This document shows positions 12,061 through 50,463 of a DNA stretch of 64,000 nt, one piece after another. The translations under genes were made by a program, and so were the position numbers. Source of the DNA: Yuukianura sp. NJ FZ-2021 (taxonomy: Eukaryota); assembly GCA_046563655.1 (NCBI GenBank), contig CM102283.1, positions 3,782,001 to 3,846,000 on the forward strand, written 5' to 3'. Numbering within the stretch: the stretch's first letter is position 1; each line of letters opens with the position of its first letter. The notes beneath the pieces were generated by a model. That model had not been told where the DNA came from. It saw only the letters and a program-made list of their open reading frames with translations, and made no database searches.

Positions 12061-12074
12061 GTTTCCATGGCAAC
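12061..12074. promoter_or_regulatory. RFX X-box consensus match with no obvious adjacent target gene
   Basis: GTTTCCATGGCAAC matches the canonical 14-bp X-box. Confidence 0.4.
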
Positions 12075-25753: not shown

Positions 25754-26093
25754 AACTATTTCCTTGACCCCAAGGTCAACGTTAGCCCAACCAGCAATCA
25801 ATCAATAAAAATAAAACAATCCATTCCAACCGCATAAAAAAGGAAGGTAAACTTTCTTAAAAAAAAATAAGTGAGTCTGGCTAATCATCTGAATTTTCGG
25901 AATGCTCTGAAAATTTATTCTCACAAATTTCACAAAATTCTTCTTGTGGACAAAAGTAGTGAATGAAAATGAAATGAAATTAATTAATTGTGTTTTAGGT
26001 TTAAATTAGATTACAGAAACGGAAGAATTAGCCAGTGGTTACGGTTAGTGTGATCCTAATGTGACAGTTTACGGATTCTTCTTTCCAACTTCA

Positions 26094-26581
26094 TCATGAT
26101 CCACGACCTTCTCCAGTCGTTGGATTTCCATCCAACGCTTCCTTCATATTATCAGAGAGTGATTGGTTGGCTTCAGGGATTTTATTGTGTAAATCCAAGT
26201 CGCTCTCCATCTTTATTTCAGCAATTTTACGACGCAAATAGGTTTTGTTACGACGCTTCATCTCCGTAAATCGCCGAATTTCGGCCGCAATTCGCCGACG
26301 TAAAATGGATTGACTAAGACGCTTCATAACCCGAATGCGACGATCCAGTTTCTTTTGGTGACTTGCAACTATTTCTACGACACGAACTTCTATTTGACGT
26401 TCAATTTCCTTTTTGTCCTGCTCCAGTTGCTGTTTCCGTTGTAGCGCTGCTTGAAGTGCGGCTACATGATTCTAGGTACAACAAAAGTGGAATTGTTCAT
26501 TTGTTGATTGGTTCATGGTGAGATGATACAATTCGTGTTTCCAAGTACCTGATCTCTCAACCTGCTCTGGTGGTTGGCCAT
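26094..26581 (-). CDS. Hypothetical basic coiled-coil protein; at least 2 exons, start uncertain
   Basis: MANHQSRLRDQ splices in phase 0 to NHVAALQAALQRKQQLEQDKKEIERQIEVRVVEIVASHQKKLDRRIRVMKRLSQ... The frame stays open ~40 codons further upstream. Confidence 0.45.
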
Positions 26582-27269
26582 GGACGAAGATCCAGCTACA
26601 CTGGAACTGCTGGCTTCCGAATTCGATACTTTCCGGCTATCCGACACTTCAGTCGGAGTCTCAGCTACTTCAGTCGGCGTCTCCGACACTTCAAACGGCC
26701 TCCACGGAGCCCCATTGTTTAAAAATCAGGTTTATTCAATAATTATATCAATGTTTAAAAATTAAAGTTTAGCAATTCAGTCTCTGTAAACTACAAATCC
26801 TAACTGGAATTGAACAAGAACTAGGAGTGCAGTGGACTTTTCACATCAAAACGTATGTAAATTTAGTGCAATGCTATGTAAAACCATACCCACAAGCTCC
26901 CGAGTTCCAGAGTCCAATCAAGACGCTCAGTTCAAAAACCTAATTTGCAAAATTTTGTAGTAAATAGAGGAAGAGGTGACTTTGGTAGTTTGTTCCAATT
27001 GCAACTTCTTCTACATCCAACTTTTGCCTCGTGGTGGACTCTGTCGTCTCCTAACCCAACGTCCTTAAACCAAATCCTGACTTTCTAAAACGCCTCAGGC
27101 CTTGTTCAAATGTCTCGTTCTAACAATTTTTGGAACACTTCCTTTGGAACCCAAAATTGAGGCTAGGCCAAGGTGACAATTCATGCGCTCTTTTCGTCTA
27201 AACCAAGCTTGTTTAACTCGAAATTTTGTTTATTTCTTCTTATACCATTACGCCATTTTAGTACAAATG

Positions 27270-27374
27270 GTCGCTATAGCAATCTTGGTCTAAACATTTA
27301 CTTCAAGTAGACAGAATCACAGCAATAACGTCAATTTATTGGGCATTTTCAGGAACAAAGAGTACCATAGCAAC
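27270..27374. promoter_or_regulatory. Two RFX X-box-like motifs upstream of the dynein-tail gene
   Basis: GTCGCTATAGCAAT (27270-27283) and AGTACCATAGCAAC (27361-27374). Confidence 0.55.
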
Positions 27375-27506: not shown

Positions 27507-30500
27507 ATGTCGCTGCGATCCAATTTTGACGTCGCCGTTGGGCCTGGAGACGCCGTTAGCCTCCGAATTCCAGACCCATGGATGAGTCGCATTGAACCCA
27601 AAGTGTTCTCTACGCCACGATTCACTCAAATCCCTACGGCATTACAACAAGTACAGACTCAAAACCGCCAAATTTCAAAATTTCCAAAAAAAAAATCTTT
27701 CATATTTTGAAAATATTTGTTCATTTTGAGGCCAAAACGGAAGTGAATGAAGACTACCGTTTTACTCATCACCATTTCTTGGTCGATTCCGCCACTGAAT
27801 CCTTTCCGTCTACTCCATTGGATCAGACTGGACTCATTGCCGAACTTGGAGGTGACTGGAGTGAGTTTCAGGGCCGGATCGCTCAATGTTCAACTGCAGT
27901 CTTTCCGTTTAAAAAGTATCGACTGGAACGCAGTTCTGTCATCTACACTCCAGAACCGTTTAAAGCCTTTTCAGAAATTTTAGTGTCAGCAGTGGCGGCC
28001 CATTCCAAAAGATTCCTCTTCACAACTGATCTGCCCAAACTGGTTCCCGTTCCACTCCAAGTTTACGTTTCCAAACAAAAGGAACATATTAAACCGGTAA
28101 TTTTCAAAATTTCAAAAAAAAAAAAATTGAATTAAAAAAAACATTTTTAAATTTTAAACAGACGGAAGAGTTCGTGAGGGTGGAATGGCTGGATTTTGTT
28201 GTAACTACAATCAAAAACCACCTTAAAAACGAACCTCAACTGCGATACGACACTGACGAAAAGGACTGGAACGTTTTTGAAGTTTCAAAAATTTCTAAAT
28301 ACTTGACACTCATGAGATTTGTGATGGAGGTCAGTTTCTTGTTCCGAAATTCAAAATTTCTATTTCTTGAAAATTTGGAAAACTTGAATTTTGAAAATTT
28401 ACAGGACACTCTGCGTACGATGGTTCTGGAGTCGCTGGATTCGTTTTTGAACAAAATCAAGGCCCTGACAGAACCCTTTGAAAACGTTGACCAAACGTAC
28501 GAGTGGGGAAATGACCTTGTTCACACGGAATTCCCGCCACCGCAGGGTCACCATCCTCTATGGGCATTGGAGTTGACACTTTCCAGTGATGGACCAACCT
28601 ACGACCACTTCTTGTCTGACTTTTCCAAGGAATTGACAGGCCTCATGACGATCTGTGTCGACGCAACGGCAGGAATTCCTGACGTAAACACTTTCCTCAA
28701 TTCACATTTTCAAACTTCCTGCTTGTTTTTAACGTCGATTTTTAACAGATTCTGCCCCTGATTATGAAGAATTTGCTGTTTGGAGAAAAGAAAACACTGC
28801 ACTCAATTCCAAACGACGACCCGGCAGTGGTGGCTCGAATTTCGGAATTGCAGGGCCGTCTCGCTCAGGCTCTTGGGCCCGTCGAAGCTTACGCTAAAAA
28901 ATTTACGGCCTACCTGCCCATTTGGGATTTGGATTTGGAGCAGTTCATGAAGTGGGATTTATCAATTTATAACTTATAATATTATAATAATAAAAGTAAT
29001 TAAAATATATTATTATTATTATTTATTTGCAGTGAGTGGAACTCAGCTGATCATACTGCAGAAGAAGTTCGAGCTGCTGCTGACTTCCATTTGCACGAAC
29101 ACAATCAAATGGAAACTGAAATACCAAATTCAATTGACCTTGGTCCGTTTCGAATTCAAATTGAACCGCTCCGAACGGAACTCCTGCGAAGAAAAAAACT
29201 CGTCCACACTTCAATTCTCGAAAGTTTTGCCAACAAATTGCGATCCACAATTTCAGAGGTCAGTCACTTTTTTCAAAATTATCTTTCAAGTTTTTATTTA
29301 GAAATTTTTGAAAGTTACTCAAAGTTTTGTCTGAAATTGTTTAGATTTTGGAAGGATATGAGGAGATTAAAACAAAGTTGAGCACTCGTTCTGAAGATAT
29401 TGAGGAAGTGATGGAACTGAAACTTTTTTTGGCCGAAGTGCCGGCCCTGCTGACCAAAAATCAAGACACAATTCAAAATATTATGAGAGACTACGAAGTT
29501 TTCGAAGTTTTTAAATTCCCAATTTCGCGTGAGGACTTTGAAGCTCGTTGGACGGCCCTGATGGGTCTTCGGAAAATGTACAAGTTTGCAGATGAGGCTG
29601 TCCATTGGTTGGGTGGTGACTACCGGAAACTTCTGCGTATCCAAAAGTCGGATATGTCGGATCTCAATGTCGCCGTGGAGGTGGCGACATCTTCTGTTGC
29701 CACTTTGTCCACTTTTGTGGACATTTCAAACATTTCGGAAGCCAGGACACAAGTGGATGTCGCTGCAAAAGTAGTTCAGGAATTGCAACACAAAAGCGAC
29801 ATTTTCAACCGTCGCCAACTCGTTTTCGGTCTTCCGGCAGTTCAGAAGGAAACTGTGGCGGCTCTCGTTCAAACTACACACAAGTACGAGTCGTTATGGG
29901 CGACCATTGGCGGTAAAATTCAAAATTTCAAAAAAAATAAGTGAAAATGAAATAAAAAAAAAATTTTTTTTTTGTAGATTGGTTGAAGATTGAGGAGGAC
30001 GCTTTCAATTTGCCCATGGACCAACTGGACATGACTGGAGTAAATCAAATCATCACGGACGGTTTGAAAGTTGTGCGCAGAAGTAAAAAGTACTTTGGGC
30101 AACTGGGGGAACTCGGAGTGAAAGAATTGGCGCGCAAAGTGAAGCGACAAATCAAAGCCTTCCGAAAACTGGTTCCTTTGATACTCGTTTTCACACATGT
30201 CGGATTTCGAGCCCGCCATTTGGAATCCATTTCTCAAATTTGCGGTAATTTGAAACTTTTTTGAAAATTTTGAAAAAAAAAAGTGTTACTTACCTCCCAA
30301 TTTTTCTAAAATGCTTAGGTGTTGAAGTAGTGGCGACCTCAAGCAGTACTTTGAAGGCACTCGTTGATCAAGGGCTGAGCCCTTATGTCCTCGAAATTGA
30401 AAAAATTGGACAGGACTGTGAACATGAATTGGAAATTGAGTTGGAACTGAGCAAAATGGAGACAGATGCAACTGAAATCAAAGTCTCACTTCAAAAAGAT

Positions 30501-31064
30501 CCAAAAACAGGTTCCAAAAAGTTAAAAACTAAAATTTTGAATTGAATTTTGAAAAGTTGACTGTCTTTTTTTCTTTGTTGTTTAGGAATTGAAACTGTGA
30601 CGGTGCCTGAAGGAACGGATGAATTCCTGGAGTCCTGTGCCAAAAAAACTGGCGAATTCCAGGAGAGCCCTTACAAGGGTCCCTTTGCTGAGTACCTGAG
30701 AACTTGGGAGAACAAACTGCGCATGGCCACTTCAACGCTCCACAAAATCCGCACAATTGGACCGGACTGGATTCAGTTCCAGGAGGAATTGGAGGCTGGA
30801 GGTGATGGGAAAACGAGGGAAGAAATTTTTGAAAAAATGGGTCGTGTTTGGCGCCGAATCACCCGCATCATTCGAGGCACACCGCAGGTTTGAACAAAGT
30901 TTACAAAGTGCAGGGAATTGCATTTTTTTTTAAATTGATGCTTACAGGTAGTGGAGTTTGGTTCAAACAAAACGCTCGGCGCAAGCATCTCTCAATTTGA
31001 ACAACTACGAGCCTACATCCGTCCAGTTCCGGAGGGAAATAGGAAATCCGAAGACACGAATTAA
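27507..31064 (+). CDS. Axonemal dynein heavy-chain (DNAH1-like inner-arm) tail/DHC_N2 region only, with no AAA+ motor
   Basis: Motifs WNVFEVSKISKYLTLMRFVME-DTLRTMVLESL, IPNSIDLGPFRI, DIFNRRQLVFGLP, FRKLVPLILVFTHVGFRARHLESIS, EHELEIELELSKM and SPYKGPFAEYLRTWENKL. About 12 in-phase exons ending at TAA 31062-31064. Confidence 0.8.
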
Positions 31065-31261
31065 CAGAAAGTTGAACTTTTAATTTGAAATTTCCAAAAA
31101 TTTTGAAAAAAACGCTTCCATTTTGAAAGAAATTAAAATTAGAACAAAAGTTTCTTAGATGTTAGAAATGAAATTAGGGATTTGGTTGACTACGGACACC
31201 GGTAGATGGAACTACGTTGGCGGCGTCTGTCTGTTGTTTCAGTGGATTAGACTCACCCGTG

Positions 31262-31607: not shown

Positions 31608-33570
31608 ATGCGGGCTGTCTACTTTCTGCGGAAGTCAGTTTCTGTCTTCTTCGAGTACGACACAGCGAGATATGTGAACATCAATAGCAAGAGGGTGGGA
31701 GTATTCAGTCGCTTCCTGCAATTGGTTGTTCTTGCCTACATCGTTGGGTAAGTAATTGATTAATTGAGGGTCATATGACGTTAATTGATCGATTAATTGA
31801 TGTAGGTATGTGTTGCTGCTGAGGAAGGGTTACCAGAATGTGGATTCAGTTGAGAGCGCAGTGGTGACGAAGGTCAAGGGAGTTGTGCTTACCAATTACA
31901 CTGCTGAAGAGCTTAACATCGTCAATGCAACGTTGTACAATCGTATCTGGGATCCAGCTGACTTTGTAGTGCCTTCAGAGGGACTGGAACGCGGTGGGTT
32001 CTTCGTCATGACCAACATTGTTATCACTCCTAATCAAAGTAGATCCATTTGTCCAGAGGTACTGTGTCATGTCACCATTAATCAAACTCTTAAAAGTTAT
32101 TCCTTGTTAGATAACAGTGTCTGATTACCCTTATTTACTTTTTGTAGGATGAGAACCTGCCCACTGCTGTTTGTTCCAGTGACAATGACTGTGAAGTTGG
32201 TCGGTCTTTCCAGGTTGGCAATGGAGTCCAGACGGGCAAGTGTGTCAATAGTTCCAGAGAAAATTCGACTCTAAAGACTTGTGAAATCCATGCCTGGTGT
32301 CCAGTGGAGCAAGACATTTTGCCATTGTAACTAAATTAATTGAATTAATTGCATAACTAATTGATTTCTGAGTAAAGTTAAAGTGTTTTTGTCTTTTTCT
32401 ATACTAGAAATGGAACCAAGGCGCTGCTACTCCCAGAGGCTGAGAATTTTACAGTATTGATTAAAAATGCAATTGCTTTTCCCTTCTTTGGAGAAGAATA
32501 CTCGCGCCGAAATGTGTTAGAAGATGCAAATGCTACGTACTTGCAGCAGTGTCGGTATGATCCTGTTGACGATCCGTTTTGTCCGGTATTTCGCTTGGCC
32601 GACATCGTTAAACAGTCGGGAGCCTCGTTTTCGTCAGTGGCGATTCGGGCAAGTTGAGATTTTAAGAATTTGTAAAAATCGGTGACATTTTTTGACAACT
32701 GCTGTTTTGAAATGCTACAGGGCGGAGTGTTTGTGATTACGATCAGATGGAGTTGTAACTTGGACTATGATTTCATGGTTCCATGTGATTTGGTCAGAAA
32801 GTGAAAAGATCAAAAGTGAAATGATCAGAAAAAAAGGTCAGAAAAGGAAGGAACGTAACCAAACCTAACCTGAGATCTTTTGAATTCTGACCTTTTCACT
32901 TCTGATCATTTCACTTCTGACCAAATATTTCTGACCATTTCACCTGCTACGGATTTCATGCAGTGGTGTAGACCGAGGTATTCGTTTACGAGAATGGATG
33001 CAACCGATGCCAAGATCGCTCCAGGCTGGAACTTTCGGTAAGTTTTTCAGCACATTTTCAAAATGTTTACCATTTTCAGAAAAAGTTTGTTTTTCAAATA
33101 ATATTGTTTTTGATTAGGCAAGCCAAGTACCACGAAGAGAATCGACGAACCTTGTCCAAGATGTTCGGCATAAAAGTTTTAATTGAAGTGGAAGGAGAAG
33201 CTGGAAAGTTCGGACTAGTTCCACTACTGCTGAATGTTGGTGCTGGATTGGGTTTGATGGGACTGGTAACTTTATAACTTATAATTTTATATTAATATAA
33301 TTTGTATAATTAAATATTTTATAACTTCAGACCACAGTCATATGTGACATAATAGTCCTGTACTGCTTGAAGTCTCGTGATATTTACAAAGAGAAGAAAT
33401 TCAAGACCGTCCAGGCTGGGGATGCGTTTTACGTGAATCCAGCGGCGGTTGAGCATGACGAGGACGACGCTGGAACAAATACTGCTGGTTACACAAATTT
33501 CGATCAACCCAGCACGCGACGCAGTCGACAACCTACGTTTCCGGTGGATGACAACACTCCAGTGACATAA
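31608..33570 (+). CDS. P2X purinoceptor (ATP-gated cation channel)
   Basis: Motifs FFEYDT, SAVVTKVKG, RIWDPADFV, FFVMTN...TPNQ..SICPE, GNGVQTGKC, TCEIHAWCPVE, AENFTVLIKN, PFCPVFRL, WSCNLD, PGWNFR and TM2 PLLLNVGAGLGLMGL...CD. Confidence 0.95.
32778..32951. mobile_element. 174-bp Mutator-like MITE inserted in a P2X coding exon
   Basis: 9-bp TSD GATTTCATG at 32769-32777 and 32952-32960. Imperfect TIRs (GTTCCATGTGATTTGGTCAGAAA versus reverse complement GTAGCAGGTGAAATGGTCAGAAA). Internal inverted TCAGAA/TTCTGA repeats. Confidence 0.88.
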
Positions 33571-44132: not shown

Positions 44133-44245
44133 TTTGTTGAAAATACTGCCAGTATTTTATAAACTCCTGCTTCACTCCTGTCCAAAATGTTCGTCCGCAA
44201 AAGCGTGTGCCTTGCTGCAACTTTGGAAGGCGCGAAACAAAATAC

Positions 44246-44321
44246 GTTTTCATGGCAACGAATTGAAAATTTTCAAATTGAAATGGAAAATGAGAAATGA
44301 AACTACTGTTGTTATGGGAAC
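44246..44321. promoter_or_regulatory. RFX X-boxes in a bidirectional promoter (SHIPPO-repeat gene / CFAP61)
   Basis: GTTTTCATGGCAAC (44246-44259) and GTTGTTATGGGAAC (44308-44321), between divergent ATGs at 44132 and 44455. Confidence 0.65.
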
Positions 44322-44454: not shown

Positions 44455-47400
44455 ATGGACGAAATTTCAAAGGTGGATTTGGTTCCATCTGAAGTTGACA
44501 ACTCTGCGCCTGTGCAAGATGAAGTCAGAGGATCCGTTTTTGAAGTTTTGTACAAGATTTTGGACAACTCGCTTTTCAACCACAAGAAAGCAGAAGGAAA
44601 AGACGTTACTGCTTTGAACAAACTCGTTACTGCTGAGACGCGTGAAACTTTTGCATGTGTCGACATTGCCAAAAACATGTAACATTTCAAAATGAAAAAT
44701 TGAAATTTTGAAATTCCACAAAATTCTGAAATTTTCTGAACTTCTAGGGAGAAGTCCTGTTTTTCAATTGTGCTTACGGATGTTAACGACTTGAGTCGCC
44801 TGGTAGCTCATGCCTCCTTCACCGACACGCCGACTGATCCTGGGATCGTGATTGGTGGAAAACGGTGGCGCAAGACTCCTGAACTTTCACAAGCCACGCC
44901 CACAAATACTTTGTTTGTCAGCGTCTTTGTGTTTCGTGAAGACGAGGAAATGAAACCGTGCTTGGAAGAAGTACTTGCCAATACTTTTTGTGCTTGTGAG
45001 TCCGTCGAGTACATAATGCTGGAATGTCCTTCTGTCGACTGGGTTGGTGAAGGTAAGAAACCGCAGTAATCAAATTATGGATGATTGAAATTGGCACGGT
45101 GGCACCGTGAAACCGTGATTGACATTTCCACGGTGGTACGCTTTGGTACCGCCCACTTTTGGATGAATAATTGGTAAAACTTTTGGTTTTTGTTTATGTT
45201 TTTGGTTTTGTAAAGGCTATATTTTCTGTGGCGGTGTGACGGAGCTCCTGTTCAAAGGAAAGGCTGGCGTGATGAAGAAATTAATCATTTATGCCAAAGA
45301 TGTTTTTCTTCCCAAGCTCAGAGTCAGACCTGGAAAGTAATTCGATATCGATACAAAGTGATTGAAAATTTACCTTCTGCGCAGCCTAACTTTTTTTTAC
45401 TGCGCAGGAAACGTGACCTGGATGACCTCATGGCACTTGTTGACGTGGAGCTGAAAGATTTAGAAGAAATGTTTGCAGAAAAAAGAACTTTTCTAGTCAA
45501 CATCAAGTCTATGCCAGAACGGCCCAAGAGCACCTACGTCGCTGAAGCAAGTTTTCATGACACGACATTTAAAAAAAAATTCAATTTCAATATTTTTTAT
45601 TTTCAAAAAGTTTCAGCACCGTGGATTGGCCGTTGGAGTGATCACGGTGTCAACAGAGGTCAACTGCGAACTTTTAAATGAACAGTTTCATCTGGAACGG
45701 TTTCACGGTCTGTGCAAACCGCATGACCAAGATGAAGTCAACCTCCAATCAGTTGAAAGTCGGTGAGTTACTTCTTTTGAAAAAAGTTTTTTGAAAATTT
45801 TTTTTGAAAATATACTAGAATTCTGAAATGTTCTACTCTTTTGCAGGTTGTTGGGTCCACTCAAGCGATCCGACATTCGACTGAGGGAGACATACGACAA
45901 GAGTGAAGTCGGTACAACGGCGAGAGAGGAAAAACCAAGCGCTGGAGATTTGAACGCCGTGGATCCACGGTCCTTTGTTTCCGTGAGCACCGTTGGCGGC
46001 GGCGGTGGAGACGACGACGTGCTGGATTTTTACATGGACCTTCGTTCTGCCAGTGGTACAACTCTCCCCAGTCGAGCGGCAATGACCACTGGCTACTCCG
46101 GGTAAAAGTCATGTAACTCCTTTTCAAAAGCAAATTCTGAAAAATTTGAAAATTTTGAAAAATTATTGTTTTTTTTTTAGAGATTACTTGAACATTGCAA
46201 GTCAGACTAGCAGGCAGCAGTTTAGACGCGGCCCTTACCGGAGAGAGTCCACTCGAAACCGTGATTTTGATAACTTGGATGTGACTGGCCAAGAGGAACT
46301 TTTGGCCAAAGTGAAAGCGATTCTGGACGATTTGAATCAGCGCGGACTGACAATCAGCGATGCAATGCTGGATATTGCAGCGATTCGGGTTTTGACTGAA
46401 GCGCAAGCGTACATCAACTACTGCATCTATCGATACTTGCACAAAACGCTGATTGATGACAACCTCCTGCCAAATGTCAATTGGAATCAACCTCTGCCTT
46501 CTTCTTTTATGGGTCTTCCGAACGCCATCATTCTGGAACATGTTTCCATCGACAAAAAATTCAGTTCAAGGTAAGAAGCCAAACAATTCCAAAAAAGATA
46601 ATTTTTTTTTAAAGTCAAAATTTCGAAATTCTGTTCTAATCTTTGCATAATTTTAACTGTTTTTAAGGATTATTGATCTGTTCAATGGCGTTTTTGCTGC
46701 ACATCCATTACGCGACTATTTGATTGTTACAACTCCAATCAGTAAAACACAAAAAATCAAAATTTTAAAAAAATTAATGGCACATTAAAAAAAACTTGAC
46801 ATATAAACGTTTCAGGTGCTCCAGAACTTCCGTGGATGAAATTTTTCGTGGTAAGTTTTTTTTTAAGTTTTGTGAATTTTTAATTTTTCAGCTTTTTTTT
46901 TAAATTCTAAAATTTTCAGCGTGTGACTCCGAAACAAACGAACCTCCTTGATGCCAAATCGCTTTACATTATGCACCGTTCCTGTTTTTCAACTTCACTT
47001 CGATATCGAAGAGCCAATAAGAAAGGAGACTGTGAAAAAATCGAAAATTTACTTGAAATTTTATGCAACTGCGACGCTGAGAAAATACTGAACGACTTCA
47101 AACAATCGATGTGCTCCACTCATAATTTAAACGACCTCCAAGCATTTGTGGCCGAAGCGACCTCGTTGGACTGTTCTCCAGTTGTGGCTCTGGCTATCAT
47201 AGGGTATCAAATTTAAAAAAAAAAGTTCAAAATTTAAAATTTTGAAAGTTCTTATATTAAATTTTGAATTTTCAGCCCTGAGCCAAAGGCGGGTGGATAC
47301 CAAGTGAACTATGAGTTGGACCAGTACTTGTACTTTGACCTGCATGACCCCGATGACCACGCTTATGTCTATCACTTCATCATCAATCCACTGTTTCAAC

Positions 47401-50400
47401 CACACTCCAAAATCATGATGAAGGAAATCATGCGCATGATGAACGTGGATTCCTTTTTTCATAAAATTTTTCCACCGGCGGCTGACCCAAAAGTAAGAAA
47501 ACATCAAAATTTTGAAATTGAAAAATGAAAATTGACAAAATTGGCCCTGGAAGTGATTTTTAAATGAATTTTTTACATTTTTTCCCACCATTTTTAGTAT
47601 CTTCGAAACCAAAGTCAATTGAACAATATCGGGGATTTTGTGCCACTCGTTCCGCGTCGACGCGTGGAGTACTCACTGCTAAATTTGAGTGAAGATCAGG
47701 ACGACTTGCGACAACCACCAAAATCGTCGCAGCCTTCCACGGTTCCAGTGATGGCGTTTCATTACTCCAAAAAGTTCACTTATGAACCCAAAAATGTCGT
47801 TTCTCAACGCATCGTTTTCATTGGAGCTTCGGACACAACTTTGTCCTGTCTCGCGAGAATTCTGTCCAGCCCAAACTGCGATTTCAAGAATTTGACGCTG
47901 ATTAGCACGCATGGCCTGCCTGGAGGATTACCGACGGATGAAATTCGAAACTTATTTTTCCCGCGGAAGAATGGTCCGGCACTGTCCATGCGCAGTAACG
48001 AAGAATGGTATCAGTGTCTCCCAATTCGTCAACTTGTCACCACTGTCTACGGAACTGCAGTCAGAATCCTCAGGTATGAAGTGGTCGGTGGTCGTGAAAG
48101 TGAAAGATGGTCGTAAATTGATAGGTGGTCGGAAAGTGATAAGTGGTCGGAAAATGATATGTCGGAAAATGAGTGGTCGGAAAATGATAGGTGGTCGGAA
48201 AATGATAGGTGGTCGGAAAATGATACGTGGTCGGTGGTTGATGGACTCCAGTTGATTTTTCCGATTTCTGATTTGAGTTATTTCCAAAATTCAAAAAAGT
48301 TTTTTTTTTCACTTCTTTGAAACAGGAAAATCAAGGTTATTGTTGTGGACGAGAGTAAAATTGTTCCTTACGACTTGCTCGTGATTGCGACTGGACGACA
48401 ATTTATTCGCCCTGACTGTCCAGTGGCGGACATCGTAGACGAGAGACTGGAGAGATTCAAAAGAAGCTTGGCCAAATCAACGGACGTCCAACCTGAGCGC
48501 ATTCCAATGTAAAATTCATTAAAAAAAACTTTTCAAAAATTTAAAAAGAAAAAAGAAACGTTCAGCTCAATTCCTTTTAAAAATTTTAGTCCTCCCAAGC
48601 CGAAGAACGTTTTCCTGATCAACACGGACGTGGATGCTGCACAGGCTTTGAATCTACTGCGTTCCTTCATTCCATTCGTCTCTAACCGTAAGATTTTTCT
48701 CAAAAAAGCAAAAATTTTGATTTTTTTTAAATGAAAATTTCCAAATTTTGAAACTTTAGGTCAAGTGATTGTCCATGGAGCGTGTTTGGAAGCGTACTGC
48801 TGTTTGCGAGCGCTGATTGAACTTGGAATTTCACCAAACCGAATCACTTTTGTCACAGCGCTGGATGACGAAATGGCATGGGAGGAGTTTCACCCATATC
48901 GTGACACTGCACAGGTCAGAAATTTTGCAAATAAAAAACTTAAGAAAATTTTTTTGAAAAAGTGAAAAAGTTAAAACATTTTGAATTTTTTGTTTTTGTC
49001 CAAAGCTCCGGGAACTGATGATGGCCACAATGGTTGAGTTGGGAATTGAAGTCCTTCGGAACTACGACTTCCGTCGGTGGAATTTGGAAAGTGACACTGG
49101 CCTGTGCAATCGCGTGTACTTCACTACCATTCGTCGAGACATGCTTGACGATCGACCAATCAAAGTGTCCGTTCCATGTCTCGCCTACTTTGCATACTGC
49201 ACACGCCGAGTCGGAGATGACATTGTGACGGCCATCACGCCTGCGTGTCTTCCCTACAACAACGGAATCATCATCAACACGCGATTTGAAACGGACGACA
49301 CAAACATCATGGCTGCTGGACCCTGCGCAGTCTACAACAAAAGACTCTGCGCAGAAAAGTTCGACCACTTCCACTTCTCCTCATACGAAGTTGGTCAGAA
49401 GGTAAGACAGCTTTTCCAAAATTGGAAAATCCTAAAAAATTTCGAAAATATTGAAGTTTTCATTTTTTTTTCAGCTTGGAGAGTTCATTTTGAAACGGAT
49501 TTTGCCGGCAGAACGAACGTATCACATCAGTGTCTTAGCACCGGAGTCAGTTCCGTTTCCCCCGACCTTGACTCGACCACTGGTCCACTACGCTGATTTG
49601 CCAGGAAGTTGGCGATACTTGCACGTTAGCCGTCCCGGTTGGGTACCACATTGCTGTCGTCAAGCAGAATGCAAGTGCAAGGAATGCGAGTGCGGAACCG
49701 AAATCACAACCGGTTCGGTGAAACGGTTCGAAGATTCGGAACAAAAATTGTTCCGACTCCGACTCGACAAGTACCAAAAAGTGGATGGGCTGGAGTGCAT
49801 TTCGCGTCAGGTGACCTTCCACTTTTAAAATTTAGTCGAAGATTAAAAATTTTTCAAAATTTTGAATTTTAATTTCAGAGATTCCCGCCTTCGTGCCTGT
49901 CGTCACTCTACGGCCACCATACAGCATTTCTCAACGGGCTGCTTGACGGTTTAGAAAAAGCAGAAATCGATGACTTGTACAAGCATTTTTGCAAACCGTG
50001 GGTGGCTGCTTTAGGCATGGACCGTTGGCTTACTTTTCGAAACGAAATTCGAGAACTCATGAGCACCTATGTAAGTTGTTTCAAACAGTTTTTCAAAATT
50101 TTGAGTAATTTTAAAATTTCGAATTCCAGGAAATTGAAAAAGGATTGAAAATTGGGGACTTTGTGAAAGACTACATTGACAATTTAGAGAATCCAGAAGT
50201 GGTGAGTACCAAATTCAAAAATTTAACTTTCAAAATTTCAGTTTTGAATTTCCTTTCAGTTCAAAGTGGATCCAAACATACTCCGCCATGTTTTTGAAAA
50301 TACGAATTTGAAGGCGGCAATTGAAAGTAAGTTTTTGAATTTCCTCAAGTACAACAAAGCAGTTTTGCCAATGTATGCTCGACCGGACTTTGTGGAGGAA

Positions 50401-50463
50401 ACGTACAACGAAAGAATCGCCAGTCAAGCCTACATTCCACTCCACAAGAACTTCGAACTATAG
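44455..50463 (+). CDS. CFAP61: Cilia- and flagella-associated protein 61
   Basis: Motifs NTLFVSVFV, EVNCELLNEQFHLERFHGLCK, HFIINPLFQPHSKIMMKEIMR, FVPLVPRRRVEY, RIVFIGASDTTLSCL, NLTLISTHGLPG, IVPYDLLVIATGRQF, IIINTRFETDD..IMAAGP and FLKYNKAVLPMYARP. Confidence 0.9.
48081..48240. repeat. Intronic tandem repeat (GGTGGTCGGAAAATGATA, ~18-bp unit), possibly transposon-derived
   Basis: About 7 degenerate copies in the CFAP61 intron 48074-48325. The unit resembles the GGTCAGAAAGTGA repeats of the P2X MITE. Confidence 0.7.

Follow-up and report, generated by a model that had tools for sequence, protein, structure and literature searches.

Judged from its sequence, the gene at 27,507–31,064 on the plus strand of the window (the 64,000-nt stretch of the springtail Yuukianura sp. 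NJ FZ-2021 that was analysed) is DNAH1, inner-arm dynein d of Kollmar class 8, in a form that keeps the tail and ends before the motor. Since no other DNAH1 turned up in the genome, we regard it as the orthologue minus its motor and not as a spare, truncated paralogue, as an earlier sequence-only reading had supposed. We infer that it probably encodes part of a headless scaffold through which the tails of dyneins d and g dock at the foot of radial spoke 3 (RS3). The suggestion of an axonemal docking or spacer subunit made in that earlier reading is the best supported of its proposals, given a conserved stop and partner chains that are truncated as well.

In a manual splice model, 11 exons (Table 1) are joined across 10 GT–AG introns of 60–86 nt into a frame of 943 aa with no internal stop, and the same 11 exons were returned by an ab initio parser for which six further dynein genes from the same genome served as the training set and whose only input was the start and the stop. 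The open, in-phase frame described earlier stands, while its exon count (about 12) and protein length (about 900 aa) give way to 11 and 943. The gene shows none of the marks of a pseudogene, which would be a broken frame, broken splice sites or a dN/dS near 1.

Table 1. Features in the window around the DNAH1 tail gene (window coordinates).
Feature	Position	Strand	Remarks
Imperfect X-box (RFX-type site)	27270..27283	+	1 mismatch to consensus; promoter common with divergent minus-strand gene
Exon 1	27507..27650	+	first in-frame ATG
Exon 2	27731..28096	+	DNAH1 tail
Exon 3	28162..28329	+	DNAH1 tail
Exon 4	28405..28683	+	matches human DNAH1 609–698
Exon 5	28749..28951	+	DNAH1 tail
Exon 6	29033..29258	+	DNAH1 tail
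Exon 7	29345..29912	+	matches human DNAH1 844–1029; DHC_N2 start near exon end
Exon 8	29978..30244	+	DHC_N2 profile 28–102
Exon 9	30319..30510	+	DHC_N2 profile 112–166
Exon 10	30586..30887	+	DHC_N2 profile 184–267
Exon 11	30948..31064	+	last helix, short polar end, stop; homologous last exon with stop in L076 and L079
Possible poly(A) signal	31132..31137	+	sole AATAAA/ATTAAA-type hexamer between stop and P2X start; weak evidence
P2X receptor gene	31609..33567, end approximate	+	Pfam PF00864; downstream bound of dynein gene
CFAP61 (radial spoke 3 subunit)	44456..50463, ends by eye	+	13 kb downstream; apparently complete

Among all heavy-chain classes the tail is closest to DNAH1, which places the gene in DNAH1/DHC8 by descent. 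The best PDB matches of exon 7 are DNAH1 from three mammals (E 4.9e-16 to 3e-14, with the next class at 1e-3), DNAH1 is the only PDB class matched by exon 4 (E 1.3e-5), and the PDB alignments make the protein colinear with residues ~380–1323 of the 4265 in human DNAH1. The presence of DHC_N2 without DHC_N1 is that of the single-headed type (contig C1 has no DHC_N1 match). Pfam searches of the exons placed DHC_N2 in 3 of 11 (profile positions 28–267) and AAA families in none, as the sequence-only reading had expected of an HMM scan. About three-quarters of DHC_N2 is kept, the orthologues spanning 1–305/306 of its 403 positions. The DNAH1-like tail of that reading was correct, whereas its "first part of DHC_N2" understated what remains.

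In the alignment, the cut falls just before a conserved K-R-x-x-F-P-R-F motif, in what we take to be the hinge region of the linker. A hinge helix of the linker has been described in PMC4879348, where the accessible text does not give its residue numbers. Relative to human DNAH1, ~2,940 C-terminal residues are missing, comprising the rest of the linker, six AAA modules, the stalk, the microtubule-binding domain and the C-terminal domain. Because the gene does not encode the complete linker, AAA1–6 ring, stalk and microtubule-binding domain by which a dynein motor is defined, we do not class it as one, and with ring, stalk and microtubule-binding domain absent its product cannot hydrolyse ATP or pull. 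The 5′ end, on which the sequence-only reading did not remark, is also short: ~380 residues are missing when the gene is compared with human DNAH1 and ~700 when it is compared with Orchesella cincta, and the orthologues keep an N-terminal region that the window gene does not have. Some 14 codons just 5′ of the exon 1 ATG still resemble orthologue coding sequence, so the N-terminus was shortened in this lineage. The sole candidate for a separate gene carrying the missing N-terminal part (E 0.16) turned out to lie in an intron of a gene with no relation to it.

The TAA stop (31,062–31,064) is followed after 545 nt by the ATG of the P2X gene, close to the ~540 bp first estimated, and a Nedd4-like gene, read by eye, comes after P2X. 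That this leaves no room for a motor is borne out: a 4139-aa full-length dynein query found no motor exons elsewhere in the window (one chance match, E 0.79), and none were found in the flanking genome 10 kb upstream and 20 kb downstream of it. The last exon holds six GT dinucleotides from which a long intron with nested genes might begin, but no motor exon lies in the next 33 kb of the window or the 20 kb beyond. With CFAP61 present (Table 1), the genome retains the site at which the d and g tails would be expected to dock. CFAP61 itself has an X-box-like motif near 44,250 and a promoter common with a minus-strand gene. An apparent synteny between the L079 locus and 44,134–44,217 consists of a 28-residue chained match.

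Of the X-boxes first reported upstream, the imperfect site in Table 1 survives, and a second candidate near 27,362 fails a search with what we take to be the X-box consensus. Across the window this search gave 6 strand matches, or 4 sites, against 0.24 expected. The other matches lie at 12,061, 56,296 and 63,744, and the genes adjacent to them may be ciliary. The divergent gene at ~26,090–27,260 (minus strand) stands head to head with the dynein gene, has the X-box in common with it and contains a basic coiled-coil-like exon.

Heavy chains were inventoried over 98.7 Mb in 22 contigs by scoring the top candidates of each search, a scope that small or very divergent pieces could escape. Profile matches fell at 11 places for DHC_N2, 9 for AAA1 and 7 for DHC_N1. 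AAA5 matched the same 9 places and one 50-codon scrap, the C-terminal domain matched 7 of the 9 motors and three scraps, and the stalk profile likewise matched 7 of 9, thereby missing two known motors. All nine are continuous from the tail to AAA6 or to the end. Four of them have no DHC_N1 and are single-headed (DNAH3, DNAH12 and two DNAH7), and the five with DHC_N1 are DNAH5/8 (C2b), C6c, C6a and two chains that, by their motifs, are presumably cytoplasmic dyneins 1 and 2. The closest relative of C6c is DNAH5/8 (C2b; 49% over 3,300+ aligned residues), and C6a, at 66% to a bovine sperm chain versus 40–46% to I1 chains, would be outer-arm beta. The genome probably contains no motor-bearing DNAH2 or DNAH10, and among the top candidates of the searches there was neither a second DNAH1 nor a DNAH1 or DNAH6 with its motor. 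Searches of the genome with AAA1, AAA5, the stalk and the C-terminal domain found no orphan motor half among their top candidates, those at C3:5755138, C4:10206785, C4:10262076 and C8:6631317 being isolated scraps of 50 to ~160 residues. Atlas searches returned generic dynein clusters only.

The dynein scraps on C3, C4 and C8 (C-terminal or AAA5 sequence) contain introns and are possibly carried by mobile DNA. The two full DNAH7 copies (C6:3353000-3373000 and C14:182000-206000) are 82–94% identical in DNA and reflect either a duplication of recent date or a haplotype, on a small contig, that has diverged. Cytoplasmic dynein 1 (C2:462800-479000, plus strand) has no Dynein_C match, and when aligned to full-length dynein it can be followed only as far as the end of AAA6.

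Three other heavy chains in this genome are tail-only. DNAH6 (dynein g; C4:6416938-6421968, plus strand; L058–L059) has 19 exons encoding 1158 aa with DNAH6 as the best PDB match, and its cut falls at the helix where the window gene also ends; an acidic stretch comes next and, ~600 bp on, an unrelated ankyrin-repeat-like gene. DNAH10 (I1/f alpha; C5:10327849-10333135, plus strand; L105; ~1190 aa) and DNAH2 (I1/f beta; C5:5089297-5086053, minus strand; L104; 6 exons, 940 aa) both end before DHC_N2. Since the parser must by design return some open path, these three models rest on their ordinary intron sizes and PDB matches. A DNAH12 gene lies a few kb downstream of the DNAH10 tail.

Among potential partners, p28/DNALI1 is encoded at six loci (C4:4975078, C4:2485188, C5:3470966, C4:5293823, C1:2089537 and C3:8970220), an unusual expansion given the few single-headed motors. 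CASC1/IC97 gave one weak match, which fell below the cut-off in one search and scored 27.8 versus 26.2 bits in another. ZMYND12 (p38), which together with TTC29 (p44) docks dynein d, was not recognised by eye among 30 of 31 MYND matches; the usual docking route may therefore be incomplete in this genome.

The position of the stop is old. A metagenome scan yielded 5 loci from 555 candidates, and the two that reach the gene end (L076 and L079) both stop in the last exon, which is homologous to that of the window gene, and the next 8.3 and 8.7 kb, respectively, gave no match to a dynein motor. L076 (43% identity to the window gene) has all 11 exons and all 10 intron positions and phases, and L079 (33%) has one intron fewer. 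Over 930 codons, the comparison with L076 gives pN 0.36, pS 0.72, dN 0.50 and dS 2.5, hence a dN/dS of ~0.2 that is rough because dS is near saturation, far from the value of ~1 named beforehand as a sign of decay; position identities are 0.58/0.69/0.39. Against L079, dS is saturated.

An alignment query with 8000 scored candidates recovered three named springtail proteins (Allacma fusca, 1698 aa; Orchesella cincta, 1657 aa; O. dallaii, 625 aa), after an earlier single-exon word search for longer homologues had found none among 1270 candidates. In all three, DHC_N2 1–305/306 is the sole Pfam family and is followed by a short acidic end. The O. dallaii fragment, as modelled by AlphaFold (pLDDT 88), has a whole helix (590–614) at its end, and its best fold match is human DNAH1 (TM 0.68). 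In a quick tree of 37 rows, the window gene, L076, L079 and the three springtail proteins form a clade with support of 100, in which the window copy sits on a long branch; this grouping points to a springtail as the source of the window. Five orthologues with the same end contradict both recent decay and a misassembly near 31.1 kb, which the sequence-only reading had listed among its possible refutations. The best explanation of these sequences is that the motor was lost long ago in the springtail lineage and that the gene was kept for its tail.

According to the accessible text of Walton 2023 (PMC10266980), the tails of d and g and their light chains are merged into one complex at RS3 with ZMYND12/TTC29; f, g and d are docked together by CFAP57 and CFAP43/44, and the IDAg linker is in contact with DRC3. 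In the portion of Toba 2011 (PMC3031465) available, I1 heavy chains engineered to lack the motor are reported to be built into the axoneme nonetheless, together with all IC/LC subunits. The four headless chains described here are exactly the set tied together by shared docking factors, which argues for a headless d/g scaffold. Expressed and bound at that site, the DNAH1 tail would play a structural part, stabilising RS3 together with the interlocking docking factors of the 96-nm repeat. Force would come from the outer arms and DNAH3/7/12, and the axoneme would be without four of its eight inner-arm heads, with their bases kept. Counting against the scaffold reading, the window copy has no counterpart of the N-terminal region of its orthologues and lies on a long branch, ZMYND12 was not recognised among the MYND matches and CASC1/IC97 matched weakly at one place.

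Alternatively, the tail may function elsewhere, with the retained half-linker acting as a passive contact to the N-DRC or a neighbouring motor, or with the protein taking part in cytoplasmic assembly or transport of p28/actin dyneins. This could explain why d and g keep ~300 DHC_N2 residues, seemingly beyond docking need, when dipteran forms stop at ~145, and it is consistent with the unrecognised ZMYND12 and with the contact between DRC3 and the IDAg linker (Walton 2023, PMC10266980, as above). We nonetheless consider it unlikely, since in four different chains it is precisely the docking tail that survives and CFAP61 is retained; moreover, dipteran forms persist without the extra DHC_N2, which points to the tail proper as the common core. 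The family might also be functional in other springtails while the window copy is a relaxing relic, as its own N-terminal loss, its long branch and the unrecognised ZMYND12 could indicate, but 943 codons open across 10 canonical introns, a kept X-box and the dN/dS and position identities relative to L076 make this very unlikely.

The sequence-only reading also raised a competitor of inner-arm dynein, a weak proposal in that there is no full-length dynein d to compete with. A role as competitor or buffer, drawing p28/actin off the class-7 motors (DNAH3/7/12), would accord with the six p28 loci and with the binding of p28 and actin by DNAH1 as by class 7, stated in the consulted text of Kollmar 2016 (PMC5100056). 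Such a role is highly improbable, however, because the tail form replaced the sole DNAH1 and did not arise beside one, and because it leaves unexplained the same loss in DNAH6, DNAH2 and DNAH10, which have other partners. The last of the early proposals, half of a split gene, would place the motor half elsewhere or in unassembled DNA, to be joined in trans as in basidiomycete cytoplasmic dynein. The cut at a clean helix end would suit this, and the assembly may be incomplete and the searches score top candidates only. Yet each of the 9 places with AAA1 has a tail of its own, AAA5 adds to these the 50-codon scrap, the three extra C-terminal matches are isolated pieces of at most ~160 residues, and the idea requires that not one but four motor halves have escaped notice. 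With no orphan motor among the top candidates of the four domain searches, a split gene is highly improbable.

Database records of tail-only DNAH1 are also found beyond springtails. The exon 7 query matched 109 representatives, 20 of which end, by eye, ~160 residues past the match with a shared charged end; 17 of the 20 were looked up, and the four with names are all Diptera (Hermetia, Anopheles, Malaya and Eupeodes). When an Anopheles protein was used as query with a length range of 546–1738 aa, all 19 Anopheles matches (714–1032 aa) had DHC_N2 and no AAA family. The dipteran family (P0017, P0024, P0032, P0101, P0123–P0140) stops at DHC_N2 ~145 and has a conserved charged C-terminus. No Drosophila member was identified among the dipteran matches, and the name of a supposed Drosophila tail-only gene had no match in the literature searched. 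DNAH1-like records of the fishes Synchiropus splendidus and S. picturatus (P0023, P0116–P0122) end at DHC_N2 302. A Ranatra record (P0019) extends past the cut point, so not all hemipterans follow. The different cut points and a quick tree of 16 rows favour independent truncations, with p-AU 0.036 for a single clade that includes the fish and 0.105 for a springtail–dipteran clade, which is therefore not rejected.

It is as motors that axonemal dyneins are usually treated, and inventories have classified them mainly by the motor domain. In the main text of Kollmar 2016 (PMC5100056), Nematocera, Brachycera, Neoteleostei, Paraneoptera and Branchiopoda are reported to have lost DHC8, and neither Nematocera nor Branchiopoda to have DHC5/6; springtails were not found in that text. 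In the accessible text of zur Lage 2019 (PMC6367277), Drosophila is without DNAH1 and Apis has one, and another dynein is supposed to fill the d position in Drosophila. The existence of tail-only DNAH1 records from these "lost" groups and from springtails suggests that a headless chain may hold that position. We tentatively propose, at somewhat less than an even chance, that much of the inner-arm dynein "loss" in animals is motor loss with the tail kept: springtail d, g, f-alpha and f-beta would be headless scaffolds, flies, mosquitoes and neoteleosts would each have a headless d independently, and motor-based surveys would have scored these as losses.

If so, the axoneme would depend structurally on the d/g tail complex, a role that can be separated from the generation of force. 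DNAH1 is a human male-infertility gene, and the DNAH1 complex has been proposed to stabilise RS3 (PMC10629824, in the part consulted); a headless DNAH1 would separate the structural from the motor role of this gene. Furthermore, a motile 9+2 flagellum driven by nothing but outer arms and class-7 motors would amount to a minimal axoneme found in nature. Databases already list the springtail, dipteran and fish tail-only proteins, with the usual dynein names attached. The literature searched yielded no account of a tail-only DNAH1 that occurs naturally, although the supplements of Kollmar 2016 or subscription papers could mention one.

Among known systems, the best sequence match is the DNAH1/dynein d chain (human 8j07_g6, bovine 9fqr_X1 and 9d2f_U, Chlamydomonas DHC2 8glv_Lc; class DHC8), which carries a full motor, whereas the window protein is without the motor and ~380 N-terminal residues. 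Springtail records named DNAH1 belong to the same clade and have the same cut point and short polar or acidic end, although the two long ones (Allacma and O. cincta) carry an N-terminal region of ~700 aa that is absent from the window gene. Dipteran records of that name (Anopheles, Malaya, Hermetia and Eupeodes; ~950–1110 aa) are likewise motorless DNAH1 tails, but they stop at DHC_N2 ~145, share a charged end and group with motor-bearing insect-like rows. The records of the dragonet Synchiropus (1209–1231 aa), DNAH1 tails that end at DHC_N2 302, come almost to the springtail cut. The split cytoplasmic dynein-1 of basidiomycetes (Kollmar 2016, PMC5100056, main text) also has an N-terminal-only gene, but there a second gene supplies the motor, and none was found in this genome. 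In Chlamydomonas I1, PF9-deltaN and IDA2-deltaN are motorless tails that assemble with their partners, as the available part of Toba 2011 (PMC3031465) describes. Those constructs were made in the laboratory and affect one I1 chain each, whereas the springtail case is natural, conserved and extends to d, g and both f chains.
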